Origin: Bacilli bacterium
GTDB taxonomy: Bacteria > Bacillota_I > Bacilli_A > RF39 > UBA660
Length of the DNA: 64,000 nucleotides
Assembly: GCA_045545595.1 (NCBI GenBank)
Contig: JAZQBG010000003.1
Coordinates: 91,462 to 155,461 of the forward strand
Direction: 5' to 3'
Part shown: in pieces, positions 3,826 through 47,698 of the stretch
How positions within the stretch are numbered: the stretch's first letter is position 1
How the letters are laid out: each line of letters opens with the position of its first letter
Program-made: the position numbers and the translations under genes
The notes under the pieces: generated by a model
Seen by the model: only the letters and a program-made list of their open reading frames with translations
Told to the model about the DNA's origin: nothing
Databases searched by the model: none

Positions 3826-4908
3826 ATGGCAAAAGCTAAACAAAAAACTATAGTATTAAAAGTTAGTGATGAAATTAAAAAAGAAATGATTAATCATTAT
3901 GCATTTATGAGAAGAGAAAAAACTCCACCTTACGCTGTTTTTCAAGCACAGGATGCAGATACAATAATTACACTTTATGAATCTGGTAAAGCAATGTTTC
4001 AAGGAATAAGTGCGGATATAGATGCAAATATATGGAAACAAAGAGAAGCTTTTTTACACCCTGAATTAACTATTGAAGAAAAACCAGTTGTTAAAAAGGA
4101 AGTTACAAAAACTGGTGAAGTTTGTCCTAAGTGTGGACATGATATGGTTGTAAGAACTAGTAAGTATGGCGAATTTGAAGCTTGTAGTAATTATCCTAAA
4201 TGTAAATATATTAAAGGTCAAGAAAATAAGAAACCAAAAACTGTTGATAATACAGATTATCATAATGTATGCTCAATTGGATCTGATGAAGTTGGTACTG
4301 GTGACTTTTTTGGACCACTAGTAGTTACTGCTGCATATGTAACTATGGATGATATTAAATTTTTAGAAGATTTAGGTGTTAAAGATTCTAAAAAAATGAG
4401 TGATGAAACTATTCTTAAAGTTGTTCCAAAAATTAAAGAAAGAATTCAATATGAAACTAAGATACTTAGTAACGAACAATATAATTTAATGTATTCAGAA
4501 AAAATAAATATGAATACTTTTAAAGCATTAATGCATAATGAAGTATTATATAAGTTAGAACAAAAACATAAAGATTATGATTATATTATTGTAGATCAAT
4601 TTGTTAATCCTAAAAAATATTATGAATATTTGAAAGATGAAGAAAATGTTGTTAAAAATATTACATTTATGACTAAAGCTGAAGATAAGAATTTAGCAGT
4701 TGCTTGCGGATCATTAATAAGTAGATATACATTTCTTTTAGAACTTGATAAGTTAGGTGAAAAATATGATATGTTTTTACCTAAAGGTGCTTCTAATTTA
4801 GTTGATGAATTTGGAGTTAATTTTGTAAAGAAGTATGGATTTGATGAACTTAAAAAAGTTTGTAAAATGAATTTTAAAAATGTAAATAAAATAAAAGAAA
4901 ACATATAA
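3826..4908 (+). CDS. rnhC: ribonuclease HIII with inserted topoisomerase-type C4 zinc ribbon
   Basis: Catalytic 'CSIGSDEVGTGDFFGPL' (DEDD RNase HII/HIII fold). There is an N-terminal TBP-like domain. A 'CPKCGHDMVVRT...CSNYPKCKY' zinc ribbon lies between the two domains. Confidence 0.75.
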   Translation: MAKAKQKTIVLKVSDEIKKEMINHYAFMRREKTPPYAVFQAQDADTIITLYESGKAMFQGISADIDANIWKQREAFLHPELTIEEKPVVKKEVTKTGEVCPKCGHDMVVRTSKYGEFEACSNYPKCKYIKGQENKKPKTVDNTDYHNVCSIGSDEVGTGDFFGPLVVTAAYVTMDDIKFLEDLGVKDSKKMSDETILKVVPKIKERIQYETKILSNEQYNLMYSEKINMNTFKALMHNEVLYKLEQKHKDYDYIIVDQFVNPKKYYEYLKDEENVVKNITFMTKAEDKNLAVACGSLISRYTFLLELDKLGEKYDMFLPKGASNLVDEFGVNFVKKYGFDELKKVCKMNFKNVNKIKENI

Positions 4909-4936
4909 AAGATGCTAGTCAAATGACTAACATCTT

Positions 4937-5752: not shown

Positions 5753-6472
5753 TTATTTATTATGACGAATTTCTACTTTTTTTAACCAACCTTTTTTGTA
5801 TTTTAAAGATATAAACCCTATCATTGATATGATAAACGCACCAAGACCATCTACTATTAAATCTTTCATGGTATCCTTTAATGCAATTCTACCAATTAAA
5901 TCAGTTCCATCTTCAAGTGCAAATTTTTGCATATTTAATCCTAATATTCCATCAAAAGTAAATTCATATATTTCCCAAACTACGCCTAAGGTTATTGAAA
6001 AACATAATGCGAAAAATGCAACAAATGCTGGGCTTAAATTTAATCGCCATCTCTTATTTTTATTCATTATTGTTACTACAGAAAAACCAAGTGCTCCTAA
6101 CATCGCACCACTAAATGTGTGTAATATTGTGTCCCAATGTGGAAAAGTATAATAAAAGTTTCTAACTTCTCCTAAAAATATTGCGCAATATAAGAAGATA
6201 ACATACAATATTTCCATACTACTTGGTATTTCAAATTTCCATTTTTTCTCCAATATACTTGGAAGAAAAATTGCCGCTATTCCTAATAAACATTGAATCA
6301 ACATTAAAACATAATCACTTTTAGTTTTTATTATTTCACTACTAATATTTTTATTTGGTGAAACTACTATCATTATTATAACAAATATTGTTGATAGCAA
6401 TAATGCTGCTAAGACAAATCCAGTTAAAATTTTATCCCAATTTGTTATTTTTTTCTTTTTTGATTTTTTCAT
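5753..6472 (-). CDS. polytopic membrane protein of unknown function
   Basis: About 6 TM segments. Probable start is M30 ('MKKSKKKK', 'cat' at 6470-6472) with an AAGGAAG RBS; the ORF extends to 6559. Confidence 0.45.
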   Translation of the reverse strand: MKKSKKKKITNWDKILTGFVLAALLLSTIFVIIMIVVSPNKNISSEIIKTKSDYVLMLIQCLLGIAAIFLPSILEKKWKFEIPSSMEILYVIFLYCAIFLGEVRNFYYTFPHWDTILHTFSGAMLGALGFSVVTIMNKNKRWRLNLSPAFVAFFALCFSITLGVVWEIYEFTFDGILGLNMQKFALEDGTDLIGRIALKDTMKDLIVDGLGAFIISMIGFISLKYKKGWLKKVEIRHNK

Positions 6473-6604: not shown

Positions 6605-6688
6605 GCGAGTATGGCGGAATTGGCAGACGCGCTAGACTTAGAATCTAGTGTCTATGACGTGCAGGTTCAAGTCCTGTTACTCGCACCA
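6605..6688 (+). tRNA. tRNA-Leu (anticodon UAG), class II with long variable arm, CCA encoded
   Basis: Acceptor GCGAGTA/TACTCGC; D-arm TGGCGGAATTGGCAGACGCGC; anticodon loop CTTAGAA; T-arm GCAGGTTCAAGTCCTGT. Confidence 0.9.
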
Positions 6689-6692
6689 AACT

Positions 6693-6769
6693 GTCCTGGT
6701 AGCTCAGTTGGATAGAGCAATCGCCTTCTAAGCGATCGGTCAGGGGTTCGAATCCCTTCCAGGACACCA
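6693..6769 (+). tRNA. tRNA-Arg (anticodon UCU), CCA encoded
   Basis: Acceptor GTCCTGG/CCAGGAC; D-arm GCTCAGTTGGATAGAGC; anticodon loop CTTCTAA; T-arm AGGGGTTCGAATCCCTT. Confidence 0.9.
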
Positions 6770-23807: not shown

Positions 23808-23838
23808 TATAAAAAAACAGAGACTTTCTTAGTCTCTG
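23808..23838 (-). terminator. rho-independent terminator of rpsU
   Basis: Minus-strand CAGAGACTaagaaAGTCTCTG hairpin followed by TTTTTTT. Confidence 0.7.
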
Positions 23839-24023
23839 TTTCTTCTTGCGTTTCTTCTAGAATTTTTGATTCCTTCTTTTTTTTCTATTCTTCTTTTTAC
23901 ACCTGGTTTATCATAGTGTTTTCTTTTTTTAATTTCAGAAGGGACTCCACTTTTAGCAAATTTTTGTTTAAAGATTTTAAGTGCACCATCGACATTATCG
24001 TTTTTAACTGATACATGTACCAT
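23829..24023 (-). CDS. rpsU: 30S ribosomal protein S21
   Basis: 64 aa 'MVHVSVKNDNVDGALKIFKQKFAKSGV...RRNRD'. Confidence 0.9.
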   Translation of the reverse strand: MVHVSVKNDNVDGALKIFKQKFAKSGVPSEIKKRKHYDKPGVKRRIEKKEGIKNSRRNARRNRD

Positions 24024-24129
24024 TTTATTTCCCTCCCTTCTTGCTTTCGTGTTTAATTATAACACAACACTTTGTTTTCCACAAGAAAAAAATAACTTAA
24101 AAACACAAAAAAGGACAAATATTGTCCTT

Positions 24130-24300
24130 TTAAAGCATATTAATCAATACTTCTTGAATTAATCTTAATGTAGTCCCGCATATTCTACCACAATTTAATA
24201 TAAAATCTATAACTATATTAAATGTTGATAAAATTATTGGACTAAGTAATATTACAGATAAAATAAAAAGCGGCTTCCTATATTTTTGAATATATTCCAT
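24130..24300 (-). CDS. putative bacteriocin immunity protein (small membrane protein)
   Basis: 56 aa 'MEYIQKYRKPLFILSVILLSPIILSTFNIVIDFIL...' immediately after the second bacteriocin peptide. It is followed by a terminator (AAAGGACAatatTGTCCTTTT at about 24102-24128). Confidence 0.4.
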   Translation of the reverse strand: MEYIQKYRKPLFILSVILLSPIILSTFNIVIDFILNCGRICGTTLRLIQEVLINML

Positions 24301-24301
24301 A

Positions 24302-24472
24302 TTATCCTAGAGAACATGTTTGTCCACTATTTATTCTTCTAATCGCAGTACCTAAGCTTCTTCCTACTTCTAAAATCGAGTTGATTGCTTTGGTAAATGC
24401 AGAAACTAAACTTCCTGATATATTTATTCCACCTTCTATTTCTAATAAACCATCTTTATTTAATTCTTTCAT
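24302..24472 (-). CDS. class II bacteriocin precursor with double-glycine leader (peptide B)
   Basis: Not in the ORF track (under 60 aa). 'MKELNKDGLLEIEGG|INISGSLVSAFTKAINSILEVGRSLGTAIRRINSGQTCSLG'. Leader has hydrophobics at -4, -7 and -12. GAAAGGAAG RBS. Confidence 0.65.
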   Translation of the reverse strand: MKELNKDGLLEIEGGINISGSLVSAFTKAINSILEVGRSLGTAIRRINSGQTCSLG

Positions 24473-24486
24473 TAATATCTTCCTTT

Positions 24487-24621
24487 CTAATTACAATTTA
24501 ATGGTCTTACATAACCATCAATTACTCCTACTAAAAATATAACCGCACCAATTATTCCAGCAATACCCCAGGCTCCTATTCCTCCGCTAACATTCATCAT
24601 TTCTTCTTTAGTTAATTCCAA
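24487..24621 (-). CDS. class II bacteriocin precursor with double-glycine leader (peptide A, Gly-rich hydrophobic)
   Basis: Not in the ORF track. TTG start with GGAAAGG RBS. '(M)ELTKEEMMNVSGG|IGAWGIAGIIGAVIFLVGVIDGYVRPLNCN'. Mature part has GxxG/GxxxG motifs typical of two-peptide (IIb) bacteriocins. Confidence 0.55.
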   Translation of the reverse strand: MELTKEEMMNVSGGIGAWGIAGIIGAVIFLVGVIDGYVRPLNCN

Positions 24622-24625
24622 ATTA

Positions 24626-25066
24626 TCATTCCTTTCCAAAAACTAATTCTTTGATTATTTCAAAACCATATTTATTATCATAATTTATTTTAAATTCAAC
24701 AATTGAATTATTAGATTTATTAAGATCATCAACTTCTATTACTATACTTTGATATGGTATATCATTTTCTATTACTGGGATTGAAACGTCTTTTATTTTG
24801 TAAGAGAATTTATTTTTATTAATAGTAAGTTTATTATTATCTAATAACTTATAAGAATCAGTATAACTTATTTTAGTTTCTATTATACCTTTATTATTAA
24901 CTATTCCAATTCCTTTGTAATAGTATTGATATTTGAAGAATAACAGTGAAATTAAAACTATAATTAGTATTATTAAGATTAGTGTAAAACTATAAAATTT
25001 TTTTGGTAATAAAATTTTTGGACTTTTATATTCTTCAATATTAACTAAATTATCCATTAGAACCAT
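24626..25066 (-). CDS. bacteriocin secretion accessory protein (short, single TM)
   Basis: 146 aa overlapping the exporter stop. N-terminal TM then a beta-rich domain, in the position normally held by an LcnD/HlyD-type accessory protein. Confidence 0.4.
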   Translation of the reverse strand: MVLMDNLVNIEEYKSPKILLPKKFYSFTLILIILIIVLISLLFFKYQYYYKGIGIVNNKGIIETKISYTDSYKLLDNNKLTINKNKFSYKIKDVSIPVIENDIPYQSIVIEVDDLNKSNNSIVEFKINYDNKYGFEIIKELVFGKE

Positions 25067-27167
25067 CTTTTCTTTCTAAAATATTTTTAATAATACCACT
25101 TTCCATACTAACAACCTTATCAAACAAGTCCATATTTTCTAACCTATGTGATACTACTATTATTGTTTTATCTTTCATATTTTTAAACATTCTTTTAAGT
25201 ATTCTTCTTTCCATATCTACGTCTATTTCATTTAGAGCTTCATCTAAAAGAATTATATTAGAACTCTCCATGAGCGCCCTACATAATATAATTCTATTTC
25301 TTTCCCCACCTGATATATTAAAGCCATTTTCTTCTAATAAAGTATCATAACCTAAATATTTATTATTACAAATTTTATCTACTTCTGTTAACCTAGACTT
25401 CTTTAAAAATTCATTATAATCTATATCTTTATTTAATACTATATTGTTAAATATTGAGTCAGTAAACAATGTTTCATTTTGTGAAACATAGGTAATATTT
25501 TCTCTTAATTCTTTGGTATTGTAATCATTGATATCTTTATCATCGATAAATATTTTACCTCGCTCTATTTCACTATATTTTAACAGTGATTTAAGCAATG
25601 TTGATTTACCACATCCACTATTACCTATTATCATTATTTTACTTCCTCTAGAGGTGTTTAAATTAATATTATTAAGTATTAAATCTTTATCATTAATAGA
25701 ATAACTAAAATCTTTAATTGTAATATTACCCATTATTTTATTTCCAGTATATTTATGGTCAATTTCTAATTTTTCCATATCTATCTCATATAATTCATTT
25801 ACTCTTTTAAAAGAGGATAAAGCATATCGTATTAGGGGTTCTAATTCTAATATATTTTTTATAGGATTAAGAAAATATATTAATAATGAATTATATGTGA
25901 TTAAATCACCTATAGAAAGCGTACCCTTCATTACTTTTAAATAACCAACAAACAATATTACAAAAAGTCCTAGTCCTCCTATTAAATCTTTTAAAAACTG
26001 ACTTATATTATGATTCTTATTAACTTTATGCTCAATATATAAATTATCTATATATTGATTTTCAACTTTATTAATTGTTCTATTCTGTAGATTCATACTT
26101 TTTATAGTCTCAAATCCATTTATAGATTCAATTAAATTAGAATTTATTTGTGCGTTTTTTTCTTGGCTTAAATTTATCAATCTCTTGTATATTGGAGAAA
26201 AAATTAAAGCTACTATTAGATATAAGACAAATATAATAATTGTAATTAAAAATAAATCTTTATTTATTCCTAATAATATTGCCCCTGAAATTATAATAAG
26301 TAATAAATCTACAAAGAGTGTTACAATAATTTTACTTATTGCCTCTTTTATATAATTTAAATCACTTATCCTTGATAATATCTCTCCAGTTGTTTTGTTT
26401 TTGAAATAATCGTATGGAAGGTTCATAACATGACTAAAGGTTTTGGTGAATAATTGATAGTCTATCTTTTGATTAGAATACAATATTAATTGATTTCTGA
26501 AGAACTCACATAAAGTTTTTAACAGGATAAGTATTACAAATAAAAATGAAATAATATAGAAGTTATTTATAGAACTTACCACTAAATCATCGATGATTAT
26601 TTTAAAATAGTATGAATTAATAATATTGAACAAAGTTATAAATAACGATAATAATACAATATTGACAAAAACTTTTTTATTACTAGAAACAAGAAATTTT
26701 AAAACATTTTTTACATTATTATCTGTTTTATAGGTTGGTATTTTTTTAATTGGATAGAACGTTATTATAACTTTAGACCACATCTTATCAAACTCATCAA
26801 AACTTAACTTTTTAACTCCGTAATTTGGATCCATAATCGTGACTATTTTCTTTTTATAATTTAAATCATAGACTACTACGTAATGTTTATAAGATTTATT
26901 TATGACTAAATGTGCAATAAATGGAACATCAATTTTATTATTTAAATCATTCAAAGATTTACACTTTATGCCTTTAGAGACAAATCCTAATTTTTCCGAA
27001 GCTAAAGTTAAATGATAAGCAGTAGTTCCTATTTTAGTTGTTTTTGTGAGTTCTCTTAATTTTTCTAGACTAATATTTCCACCATAATACCTGATTATTG
27101 ATAGAAGACATGAGGCACCACAATCTTTTATGCCTTCTTGTTTAACTATTGGTATTTTCTTTTTCAT
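25050..27167 (-). CDS. bacteriocin ABC transporter with N-terminal C39 peptidase domain
   Basis: 705 aa. 'CGASCLLSIIRYYG' catalytic Cys, 'HYVVVY' His, 6 TM, Walker A 'GNSGCGKST', signature 'LSGGERNRI' and Walker B 'ILLDEA'. Confidence 0.9.
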   Translation of the reverse strand: MKKKIPIVKQEGIKDCGASCLLSIIRYYGGNISLEKLRELTKTTKIGTTAYHLTLASEKLGFVSKGIKCKSLNDLNNKIDVPFIAHLVINKSYKHYVVVYDLNYKKKIVTIMDPNYGVKKLSFDEFDKMWSKVIITFYPIKKIPTYKTDNNVKNVLKFLVSSNKKVFVNIVLLSLFITLFNIINSYYFKIIIDDLVVSSINNFYIISFLFVILILLKTLCEFFRNQLILYSNQKIDYQLFTKTFSHVMNLPYDYFKNKTTGEILSRISDLNYIKEAISKIIVTLFVDLLLIIISGAILLGINKDLFLITIIIFVLYLIVALIFSPIYKRLINLSQEKNAQINSNLIESINGFETIKSMNLQNRTINKVENQYIDNLYIEHKVNKNHNISQFLKDLIGGLGLFVILFVGYLKVMKGTLSIGDLITYNSLLIYFLNPIKNILELEPLIRYALSSFKRVNELYEIDMEKLEIDHKYTGNKIMGNITIKDFSYSINDKDLILNNINLNTSRGSKIMIIGNSGCGKSTLLKSLLKYSEIERGKIFIDDKDINDYNTKELRENITYVSQNETLFTDSIFNNIVLNKDIDYNEFLKKSRLTEVDKICNNKYLGYDTLLEENGFNISGGERNRIILCRALMESSNIILLDEALNEIDVDMERRILKRMFKNMKDKTIIVVSHRLENMDLFDKVVSMESGIIKNILERKDGSNG

Positions 27168-27248
27168 GTTATGACCTCCACACTTATATAATCAACATTT
27201 TTTGTGTAGAAGACTTTAAAATAAAAAAAATAAATCAATTTTTTTGAT

Positions 27249-28389: not shown

Positions 28390-28458
28390 TCCTTTCCCTT
28401 CTCTTAAAACATTACTTAACATACTACCAACTTCCTTTCATGATTACATTCTACAACA

Positions 28459-28501
28459 AACAATTGTTCGTGTCAATATATTTTCGAACAATTGTTTGAC
28501 A
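28459..28501 (+). promoter_or_regulatory. two LexA (Cheo-type) boxes and the lexA promoter
   Basis: AACAATTGTTCG (28459-28470) and CGAACAATTGTTTG (28485-28498) match GAAC-N4-GTTC. The second overlaps the lexA -35 TTGACA (28496-28501); -10 TAAGAT at 28519. Confidence 0.6.
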
Positions 28502-29323: not shown

Positions 29324-31264
29324 TTATGGAATCAAGAGAGGGCGGAAGGAGTTGGCGGCGACGTTGTTAGCAGAACCAGCGTGGCTGTCAGAGTAAAACA
29401 CCCCTACCCGTGCATTGGAAGAATAGCTACCACCACGCATAAACCAAGGAGTACTAGCGGTCACGAAGACATCATTATCGGAATACCATTTCATTGTTTC
29501 CCAAGTCGCATCTCCTAATATTGCTTTTTCCTTTGTTATATTACTTAAAATTGTTCCATTATATAAATCATAATATTTTGAAGATGGAAATGTTGTAAAT
29601 CCTGATGAACTGGTAGTACTTGCATAGTTTCCCATAGTATATTCAAATAATCCTCCACTCATATCATATACTCCATATATTGTTCCAGTGGTACTCGCTC
29701 CTGTTCCTGCATATGCAACCTTATCTCCTGTACATTCTGCTACATCAGTTGAACAGGCTTTATCATTATATGAATATGTTCCATATGTTGAATATCCAAT
29801 TGCTGGTGGTACTCCACTACTTCTTCCTGTATATGAACTTGTGCTAGAACTATAACTGTTATTTTTATATACTTCTTTATTTGTTCCTGTATAATTTGCA
29901 TTACCCATTTTTCCGTACTGGCTTTGTGAAAGAATTGCTACTGCTCCCCATTCTGTATTCTTCATCATATGTGTATCTGTTGTATTAGTTGTTGTATTTA
30001 ATCCATATACATTATTTTCATTTGCTGTAAATGTTACTTCTCCTGTACTACTATCAAATGTTCCTCCTGCAAATTTTAATGCAGTAATAAACCGTGTACT
30101 TACTGTTTGATAACTTAATGATTGTACATCTGGTTTTATGATTGGTTCTACATCTGCACAGTTGTCAGCACTACCTGATGTATTACAAGTTTCATTGCTA
30201 GTCCCTGGTTCAAATTTCGCTACCCAAAAACCTGTTATTTCTTCGTCCCATGCTCCTCTTGATGTTGTACTGCTGTCATATTCTATGTTATCTAAATTTC
30301 TAAATGCTGGATGTGTATAATAATTTGTATTTGTTCCATCATCTGATATACCATTTCTATATACAGTTTCTGTAACCCCATTTGTTTCAGTTCCGGTCTC
30401 AAATACTACATCTATTTGTGGTGGCTCTGTAATAGCACTACTACTCCCAATATTACTTGATATATTATATCTATATCTAGGTATCCATACCCACATACTA
30501 TTTATATCGTCCATTGGTATTGGTGTTCCAGGTTCTGCGTTTAAATAAGTACTTCTATTTGTACTTGTTACTGTCACTGCATTTGCCCATACCTGTTCTT
30601 GATATGCATACCATCCTTTTTCAGTATCTGCTTTAACCCATACATCATTATCATCATCATACACAACTGGTATCATTCCATCCGCTAATACCGGTTCATT
30701 TGCGCCACTTGTATCTGTAAATGTTGAATATGGTAGTGCTTCTTCTATAACATTCATTTCATTTCTGCCTGTATTAAGCACTACAGTATTTGCTGCATAC
30801 CCACCTTGTACACCTATTTCCAAGGTTGCCGCTTGTGATGAAGTATTTGTTATTATTATTCTTACTGTTTTTGATAAACCAGACGCAATTAAATCTGTTA
30901 CTGGTGATTCACTATTACTTGATACACCGACATCTACACCAAGTATTGTAACGTCGCCTGCAAATCTATAATACATTTTATATTTTGTAGTGTTTGCTAA
31001 TCCATTTGTAATTGTAATATTAAATGTTTTTGTTTCACCAGATGCTACCGTAATAGTTCCACTATTTCCATTTATAATAAAATTATTTTCATCTGAAGTC
31101 AAAGTGAAATTTATCTCACTAGCTACTATTGATGCAATTCCTACTCTTTCTACTGATTTTTCAAACAGTGCAAAAGAAGTATATATTAGTGAAAATAATA
31201 ACATTGCACCTATTAATAACACTGCATATATTTCTCTTACTGACATAGTTAATATCCTCTTCAT
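29324..31264 (-). CDS. membrane-anchored protein with C-terminal FGE-sulfatase (SUMF1/DUF323) domain
   Basis: Probable start M32 ('MKRILTMSV...' signal anchor); the ORF extends to 31357 through the rny terminator hairpin. C-terminal 'WFMRGGSYSSNARVGVFYSD...FRPLL' resembles the FGE-domain C-terminus. Confidence 0.55.
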   Translation of the reverse strand: MKRILTMSVREIYAVLLIGAMLLFSLIYTSFALFEKSVERVGIASIVASEINFTLTSDENNFIINGNSGTITVASGETKTFNITITNGLANTTKYKMYYRFAGDVTILGVDVGVSSNSESPVTDLIASGLSKTVRIIITNTSSQAATLEIGVQGGYAANTVVLNTGRNEMNVIEEALPYSTFTDTSGANEPVLADGMIPVVYDDDNDVWVKADTEKGWYAYQEQVWANAVTVTSTNRSTYLNAEPGTPIPMDDINSMWVWIPRYRYNISSNIGSSSAITEPPQIDVVFETGTETNGVTETVYRNGISDDGTNTNYYTHPAFRNLDNIEYDSSTTSRGAWDEEITGFWVAKFEPGTSNETCNTSGSADNCADVEPIIKPDVQSLSYQTVSTRFITALKFAGGTFDSSTGEVTFTANENNVYGLNTTTNTTDTHMMKNTEWGAVAILSQSQYGKMGNANYTGTNKEVYKNNSYSSSTSSYTGRSSGVPPAIGYSTYGTYSYNDKACSTDVAECTGDKVAYAGTGASTTGTIYGVYDMSGGLFEYTMGNYASTTSSSGFTTFPSSKYYDLYNGTILSNITKEKAILGDATWETMKWYSDNDVFVTASTPWFMRGGSYSSNARVGVFYSDSHAGSANNVAANSFRPLLIP

Positions 31265-31361
31265 GCCTTCACCACTCTTCTTTATTATGTAACAATTATA
31301 ACATATTTTTTCTAATTTTCTACCTGTAATAACAAAAAGATTTGGAAAAATTTCCAAATCT

Positions 31362-47343: not shown

Positions 47344-47491
47344 ACTATCACCATGATAATTATATTATAAACAAAAAAATAGAGCAAGTATTGCCCTATT
47401 AAATTACATAATATTACCTATCACAACTACCTGTCAAGAAAAGTTTTCCACAGACTTGCATTTTTGTAAAGTTAGTGTTAAGATATAGAAG

Positions 47492-47698
47492 AAAGCGATG
47501 ATGAAAGACTAGTAACTGTAATCAATGTTATATAGAGAACTAGTGGTTGGTGAAAACTAGTAATATATTACTGTGAATCTACTTTCTAGGCAATAGTTAA
47601 TAGCTATCGGATAAGTCCGTTATAATTATTAGAGTAAATCTAAGGATGGTACCGTGAATTAATTCACTCCTTTTTGGGAGTGAATTTTTATTTTAGAA
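47492..47698 (+). ncRNA. T-box riboswitch leader, serine (UCU specifier) upstream of DUF1653-serS
   Basis: Promoter TTGCAT-17-TAAGAT. AGAGA bulge at 47534. 'GAAUCUA' specifier at 47576-47582. T-box sequence 'AGGATGGTACCGTG' at 47643-47656. Terminator AATTCACTCCtttttGGGAGTGAATT plus U-run. Confidence 0.7.

Follow-up and report, generated by a model that had tools for sequence, protein, structure and literature searches.

A five-gene operon for two putatively secreted double-glycine peptides, candidate partners of a class IIb-type agent, at one chromosomal site in uncultured gut Bacilli

The genome segment of a Bacilli bacterium analysed in this work (64 kb of contig JAZQBG010000003.1, ~25% guanine plus cytosine; the whole stretch is called the window from here on) carries a predicted operon of five genes for two small secreted peptides, which is judged to be real. 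All genes lie on the minus strand, in the order ABC (ATP-binding cassette) exporter, a protein of 146 amino acids (aa), peptide A, peptide B and a third small open reading frame (ORF), followed by a terminator-like hairpin and by rpsU. Among uncultured gut Bacilli, the same operon occupies one chromosomal site in no fewer than 76 species. With a probability of roughly 60%, its products would constitute a class IIb-type two-peptide membrane-active agent, from which the producing cell would be protected by a membrane-tethered mimic of one of the peptides. That mimic would be the product of the third ORF, which by its sequence profile is a paralogue of peptide B rather than an unrelated immunity protein.

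The exporter gene (25050–27167) encodes a protein of 705 aa with a C39 peptidase, a six-helix ABC membrane domain and an ATPase. Between it and peptide A is the accessory-position gene (146 aa; 24626–25066), called in the public record from start 25057 and with 143 aa. The precursor of peptide A has 44 aa (24487–24621; leader at 24580–24621, mature part at 24490–24579) and that of peptide B 56 aa (24302–24472; leader at 24428–24472, mature part at 24305–24427), their genes being on the same strand and 14 nucleotides (nt) apart. The third ORF (24130–24300) codes for a hydrophobic, presumed immunity protein of 56 aa, and an intrinsic-terminator-like hairpin with a T-run at 24109–24131 (AAAAGGACAATATTTGTCCTTTT then TTGTGTTTTT, 10 pairs) closes the operon; the region has three terminator-like sites as against 0.7 expected. 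Read from the sequence, the genes would form one transcription unit ending at this terminator, downstream of which rpsU (ribosomal protein S21; 23829–24023) has a terminator of its own. A first-pass annotation of the same DNA had described three small minus-strand ORFs downstream of a C39 exporter, the last of them for a 56-aa single-TM protein and followed by a terminator. The ORFs are indeed there with the sequences it gave, as is the hairpin with its T-run (24131–24109), and the position downstream of the exporter holds, except that the gene of the 146-aa membrane protein between the exporter and peptide A had been overlooked. The ORFs were also thought to be unannotated, which is not quite the case, all three being already called, without a name, in the public NCBI record.

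That these genes might be chance or non-coding ORFs was considered and ruled out by their conservation, purifying selection, the rarity of the leader pattern and the adjacency of the C39 exporter. When all 791 combinations of small ORFs and starts in the window were examined for the double-glycine-leader pattern, it was found only in peptides A and B and in a single ORF that runs antisense to a large gene. The ratio of nonsynonymous to synonymous polymorphism (pN/pS), obtained from 9 to 11 pairs of closely related loci per gene, is 0.21 for A, 0.18 for B, 0.33 for the third ORF and 0.46 for the 146-aa gene, which indicates that all four are under purifying selection.

Peptide A consists of a 14-aa leader, MELTKEEMMNVSGG, and a 30-aa mature part, IGAWG...PLNCN. 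Its start was placed at the TTG at 24621, and not at 24639, since the leaders of its homologues are 14–16 aa long. Mature A (3071.6 Da; isoelectric point, pI, 5.8) is near neutral and very hydrophobic, with a grand average of hydropathy (GRAVY) of 1.36, and bears the motifs GxxDG and RPLxC. Peptide B, with an ATG start, has a 15-aa leader, MKELNKDGLLEIEGG, and a 41-aa mature part, INISG...CSLG (4205.8 Da, pI 10.8), which is cationic and amphipathic and contains the segment GRSLGTAIRR and one Cys. In the alignments of the homologues, G14, F29, G32, D35, G36, P40 and C43 are invariant in peptide A, and G37, R38, S39, G41, A43, I44, R45, R46 and C53 in peptide B. A GxxxG motif is invariant in the A (74/74) and B (77/77) sequences, where the window has G32-V-I-D-G36 and G37-R-S-L-G41, respectively, as well as in 57/57 sequences of the third ORF, and a single Cys near the C-terminus is found in 72 of the 74 A peptides and 76 of the 77 B peptides. 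Most of what had been said of the peptides at first pass is borne out, i.e. the TTG start of A with GGAAAGG (9 nt upstream), the double-glycine leaders with hydrophobic residues at -4, -7 and -12 (in both peptides and in 72–77 of the 74–77 homologues), the one Cys per mature peptide and the cationic, amphipathic character of B (by its pI and its high helical hydrophobic moment).

Concerning known families, peptide A scores 33.7 bits against the NCBIfam model TIGR03949 of lactobin A/cerein 7B class IIb bacteriocins, the cutoff of which is 21.5, and the same model matches 61 of 65 peptide A homologues at an expect value (E) ≤ 0.01. Cerein 7B, a member of that family, has two Cys residues, and peptide A one. 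The match of A to PF10439 (Bacteriocin_IIc) reaches 16.1 bits, below the gathering threshold of 27.1, and such sub-threshold matches are seen in 46 of the 65 homologues. Peptide B gives no match to PF10439, and its mature part belongs to no curated Pfam or NCBIfam family. The earlier opinion that neither peptide resembles a bacteriocin with a name does not hold for A. Profile searches of the PDB with A and B returned insignificant, leader-driven matches alone.

The exporter is recognized by Pfam as Peptidase_C39 (2e-33), ABC_membrane (2e-45) and ABC_tran (6e-29). Against TIGR01193 (bacteriocin_ABC, peptide cleavage/export) it scores 472.8 bits, below the cutoff of 523.85, with E = 2e-141 and full-length coverage. 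Its closest solved relatives are PCAT1 from Acetivibrio thermocellum (4RY2, E = 2e-122) and ComA from Streptococcus pneumoniae (8HF4, E = 3e-112), which are similar to it over the full length and have the same catalytic residues and ATPase motifs, although their cargo differs. No homologue with a complete N-terminus departs from Gln10, Cys16, His95 and Asp113, and the ATPase motifs—Walker A, signature, Walker B and H-loop—are complete, so that the exporter should be able to cut after Gly-Gly and to export A and B. The 146-aa protein has an N-terminal transmembrane helix and a beta-rich domain; its AlphaFold2 model (mean confidence, pLDDT, 65.7) shows a helix at residues 22–43, seven strands and a C-terminal helix. 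It has no Pfam match, a Foldseek search with the model finds no match in the PDB and, as judged from these comparisons, it is unrelated to the known accessory families. A weak similarity was seen to the Mycoplasma MAG1140 family NF045999 (19.7 bits, below the cutoff of 35; E = 7e-4), also among its homologues, 13 of 45 of which match over nearly the whole model length (best E = 2.5e-6). The exporter, for its part, scores 320 bits against the Mycoplasma Mbov_0121 ABC transporter family (NF045998), below the cutoff of 500; the pair of Mbov_0121 and MAG1140 fits a host clade labelled Tenericutes or Mollicutes in several records.

The third ORF combines a basic N-terminus, about 26 hydrophobic residues and a peptide-B-like GxxxGTxxR segment. 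Aligned with hhalign, its profile and that of mature B match with a probability of 95.2% (P = 2.7e-8, 33 columns), whereas the controls give P = 0.65 for A versus the third ORF and P = 0.31 for A versus B; in 100 column shuffles the score did not exceed 11.6, as compared with 36.4 for the real alignment. A hidden Markov model built from third-ORF sequences alone matches 77 of 77 peptide B ORFs. The pattern common to both is G-(R)-x-x-G-T-x-I-R, then 5–8 residues and a Cys, most third-ORF homologues having a Cys at the place matching that of B. With a median net charge of +3 in the N-flank and +1 in the C-terminal part, the distribution of charge favours a single-pass protein with the N-terminus inside and the C-terminus outside, which would put the B-like segment at the outer face of the membrane. 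The paralogy with B suggests immunity by mimicry.

To establish the distribution of the operon, one genome per GTDB species was scanned for the peptide B motif GRS[LV]GTAIRR, which yielded 77 loci, with an intact peptide B ORF in 76 of them; the counts given per locus in this work refer to a set of 77 loci, from 76 genomes and the window. The exporter is upstream in 74/77 loci, and in 74/77 peptide A is adjacent to B in the same order. The third ORF is present in 60 loci and the 146-aa gene in 49. In 56 of the 77 loci the operon is placed in the rpsU–yqeY neighbourhood, with rpsU downstream, within 1 kb in 47 of them. All but three of the record titles read uncultured Bacilli, Bacillota, Tenericutes or Mollicutes, or are labels resembling binning errors; the hosts include Candidatus (Ca.) Onthousia faecavium and Ca. 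Pelethosoma merdigallinarum, and the samples come from the gut of goat, rabbit, mouse, human and chicken. The locus nearest to the window (L008, from SIG205) has 91% identity in peptide B. A profile of peptide B compared with 1.84 billion representative proteins (clustered at 50% identity) retrieved 411 clusters at E ≤ 1e-3, 106 of them even at E ≤ 1e-10; the members are nearly all 50–60 aa long, and those looked up are nameless. In the very divergent members P0211 and P0115 the operon is still the same; behind it come rpsU and/or yqeY, and after these yabP, yqfD, ybeY and dgkA, with era also present downstream in the P0211 loci. Other divergent members (L085/L086 and L087/L088) sit among sporulation-type genes (SpoIIIAH, GerE, Germane, YabP and YqfD), and at least a part of the host clade looks like spore-formers.

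With regard to the mode of inheritance, 28 of 44 loci have the same nearest neighbour by exporter as by YqeY, an indication of vertical descent at shallow depth. A search of plasmids with peptide B (tblastn) returned a single chance match and no sign of plasmid carriage. A Mantel-type correlation between exporter and YqeY identities is weak (r = 0.14, a value reached in 59 of 500 permutations), because most pairs of loci are equally distant; strict vertical descent at depth is accordingly not claimed here, the deep signal being flat.

Some loci depart from the common layout. In L016, A and B are separated by an inserted gene (3849–4922), the 357-aa product of which bears an Amidase_2 domain (N-acetylmuramoyl-L-alanine amidase; E = 2.5e-13), a slight indication of a lytic context. 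In one subclade, a DUF6273 protein of ~300–390 aa is found between the third ORF and rpsU (5404–6564 in L054, 5381–6301 in L064, 5383–6471 in L076 and 5387–6547 in L080). Four loci, L005–L007 and L061, have peptide A shrunk to a 20-aa remnant, MFVSGIFDGYVRPYACRKEG, at about 5937–5999 (4937–4999 in L061); they are without the accessory gene and the third ORF, and their peptide B and exporter are intact.

The third ORF and the 146-aa gene tend to be lost together: both are present in 48 loci and neither in 16, with the third ORF alone in 12 and the 146-aa gene alone in one (Fisher's test, 3e-8, uncorrected for phylogeny). Since the two genes are not adjacent, their linked loss is not the result of one deletion, and it fits the remark in PMC2850506 that the accessory proteins of two-peptide bacteriocins may take part in immunity.

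The assignment to class IIb is based on the comparison with the two-peptide bacteriocins described in PMC2850506, which have adjacent genes in one operon that also includes an immunity gene, double-glycine leaders (15–30 aa) removed by an ABC transporter of their own, an accessory protein and, in all known members, GxxxG motifs. The hallmarks that can be read from sequence are present in the predicted operon, with the leader of peptide A, at 14 aa, one residue below that range; the place of the immunity gene is taken by the third ORF, a candidate for that role which follows B in 60 of the 77 loci and is absent from 17. As in the systems of lactococcin G (lagA-E) and carnobacteriocin XY, there are adjacent genes for double-glycine peptides, a C39 ABC exporter, an accessory membrane protein, a small membrane protein in the immunity position, GxxxG in both peptides and the combination of one hydrophobic with one cationic amphipathic peptide. 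The third protein, as predicted from its charge, also resembles CbnZ, the carnobacteriocin XY immunity protein, which is single-pass with the N-terminus in and the C-terminus out (PMC6957408, 2019). Unlike in those two systems, however, the exporter gene is the first in order, the accessory protein has just ~146 aa and no match to the HlyD/LcnD-type family, the mature peptides are conserved over at least 76 species and more so than the exporter, the locus is fixed next to rpsU, peptide B has a paralogue in the third protein and each peptide has a single invariant Cys.

If the operon does specify such an agent, the C39 exporter would cleave both precursors after Gly-Gly and export the 30-aa hydrophobic peptide A and the 41-aa cationic amphipathic peptide B. 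In the membrane of a target cell the two would pair helix-to-helix through their GxxxG motifs (GVIDG of A and GRSLG of B), a packing to which an invariant Asp in A and the arginines in B may contribute and which a disulfide between the single invariant C-terminal Cys residues could lock; the pair would then make the membrane leaky. The third, single-pass protein would display its copy of the GxxxGTxIR...C segment of B at the outer face of the producer and shield it either by pairing with A or by occupying the site of B on the target, with the 146-aa accessory protein perhaps cooperating in the protection. The fixation upstream of rpsU may reflect a kind of addiction, in which cells that lose the protection would be killed by producing neighbours. 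A narrower version of this scheme, i.e. a lineage-wide, vertically kept system in which the membrane-anchored copy of the B segment (GxxxG-Arg-Cys) captures A, possibly through a disulfide of the A–B type, is considered doubtful.

Several observations weigh against the reading as a class IIb-type agent with a tethered mimic. The alignment with TIGR03949 covers only residues 2–31 of peptide A (model positions 3–33 of 45), that is, the leader and the first 17 residues of the mature part with its glycine-rich start; the invariant C-terminal block FxxGxxDGxxRPLxC falls outside. A further point is the conservation. Compared with the window, mature A has a median identity of 55%, mature B of 54%—a figure inflated by the finding of the loci through the B motif, which does not apply to that of mature A—and S21 of 52%; the leader of B comes to 47%, the exporter to 41%, the leader of A to 36%, the third ORF to 30% and the 146-aa protein to 26%. 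As a rule, bacteriocin loci vary and are specific to strains, and it is their leaders that are conserved while the mature peptides diverge. The pattern found here, with mature A and B about as conserved as S21, above both the exporter and the leaders, and with pN/pS near 0.2, is the reverse. The class IIb-like view of the first-pass annotation can be kept as far as the hallmarks in the sequence are concerned, but not the ordinary picture of a strain-level locus, in view of the fixed site, the inverted conservation, the paralogy of the third ORF with B and its repeated loss. Moreover, the third protein of the window is without the C-terminal Cys typical of its homologues, and the 17 loci of 77 that have no third ORF, which belong to six or more branches of the exporter tree, retain A and B; in these, protection would have to come from another source, unless the peptides do no harm to the cells that make them.

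Some of these points would suit a conserved exported pair without antagonistic function, which would serve the producer and related cells as a signal or as a component of the membrane or envelope, with the third protein as a membrane-bound partner. This alternative, the main rival, is rated as unlikely. It would account for the rpsU–yqeY site, shared even by the very divergent members beside yabP–yqfD–ybeY–dgkA–era, for the S21-like conservation of the mature peptides and for the strong purifying selection with no sign of diversification; the 17 loci that dropped the third ORF and kept A and B, the agreement of exporter and YqeY neighbours and the lack of a plasmid homologue in the tblastn search point in the same direction. 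On the other hand, no gene for a histidine kinase, a response regulator or another receptor is adjacent in the window and the loci read, and peptide A, a near-neutral hydrophobic helix of 30 residues, is unlike the known pheromones and has a chemistry resembling that of a pore-former. Residence in the core genome is also known for two-peptide bacteriocins, e.g. the pneumococcal CibAB. The layout with its GxxxG pair, furthermore, fits class IIb (PMC2850506). A peptide-pheromone circuit was also tried as the principal explanation and was rejected, there being no kinase or regulator adjacent in the loci read.

It is improbable that A and B are two independent one-peptide products, such as a bacteriocin and an inducing pheromone, that merely have the exporter in common. 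The absence of a bacteriocin family match for mature B would agree with this, and the loci with the 20-aa remnant of A indicate that B can persist alone; yet A and B are neighbours in the same order in nearly all loci (74/77), they share the invariant GxxxG and the single invariant Cys at the C-terminal end, they complement each other chemically, no gene for a sensor kinase is found nearby, and a third protein copying the conserved segment of B would be understandable if B acts together with a binding partner. Still less probable is that the third ORF encodes a secreted B-like peptide with a cleaved Sec signal instead of an anchored protector. Its basic N-terminus, the hydrophobic stretch with a central Pro and the homology of its C-terminal half to mature B could be read in that way, but the alignment (no signal-peptide predictor having been run) contains no conserved small-x-small site for signal peptidase, and the stretch of ~26 hydrophobic residues continues directly into the B-like segment.

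In the literature searched, including a large paper on the mining of class II bacteriocins in the gut, no description of this peptide family was found. Bacteriocin-like loci are routine in genomes from metagenomes; a mimic protector and an inverted conservation are not. The mechanism of immunity in the two-peptide class "remains a mystery" (PMC6957408), and the putative membrane-tethered copy of one of the peptides opens a direct test of how producers of two-peptide bacteriocins protect themselves; should A really be captured by mimicry, class IIb immunity would have its first concrete mechanism open to testing, and a disulfide between A and B, if it forms, would make the pair the first disulfide-linked heterodimeric class II bacteriocin. 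The uncultured Bacilli in question, which have small genomes, are common in the guts of humans, mice, rabbits, goats and chickens, and the 411 clusters of the unnamed peptide family, in a recognisable fixed locus, may be a source of candidate narrow-spectrum antimicrobials. That the mature peptides outdo the exporter in conservation raises the question of whether modules of this kind can become fixed traits of a lineage.

As for the surroundings of the operon in the window, the exporter is preceded by ogg (8-oxoguanine glycosylase) and then by the divergent lexA, an arrangement not conserved in the other loci. The ogg stop and the exporter start are separated by 81 nt (27168–27248, minus strand), which contain an all-A/T hairpin with a T-run, a GGAGG ribosome-binding site and a putative promoter. 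The intergenic region of the divergent ogg and lexA has two LexA (Cheo)-box-like palindromes, CAAACAATTGTTCG at 28457–28470 and CGAACAATTGTTTG at 28485–28498, overlapping promoter-like sites on both strands. An SOS-driven read-through from ogg into the peptide operon is conceivable, since the gap is that short and holds just an all-A/T hairpin. Elsewhere in the window, the RNase Y gene adjoins a 677-aa ORF (29324–31357, minus strand) for which neither Pfam nor NCBIfam gives a match at E ≤ 1, a T-box leader (47489–47674, plus strand) lies upstream of a 428-aa ORF, and two transfer RNA genes are located on the plus strand at 6605–6685 and 6693–6766.

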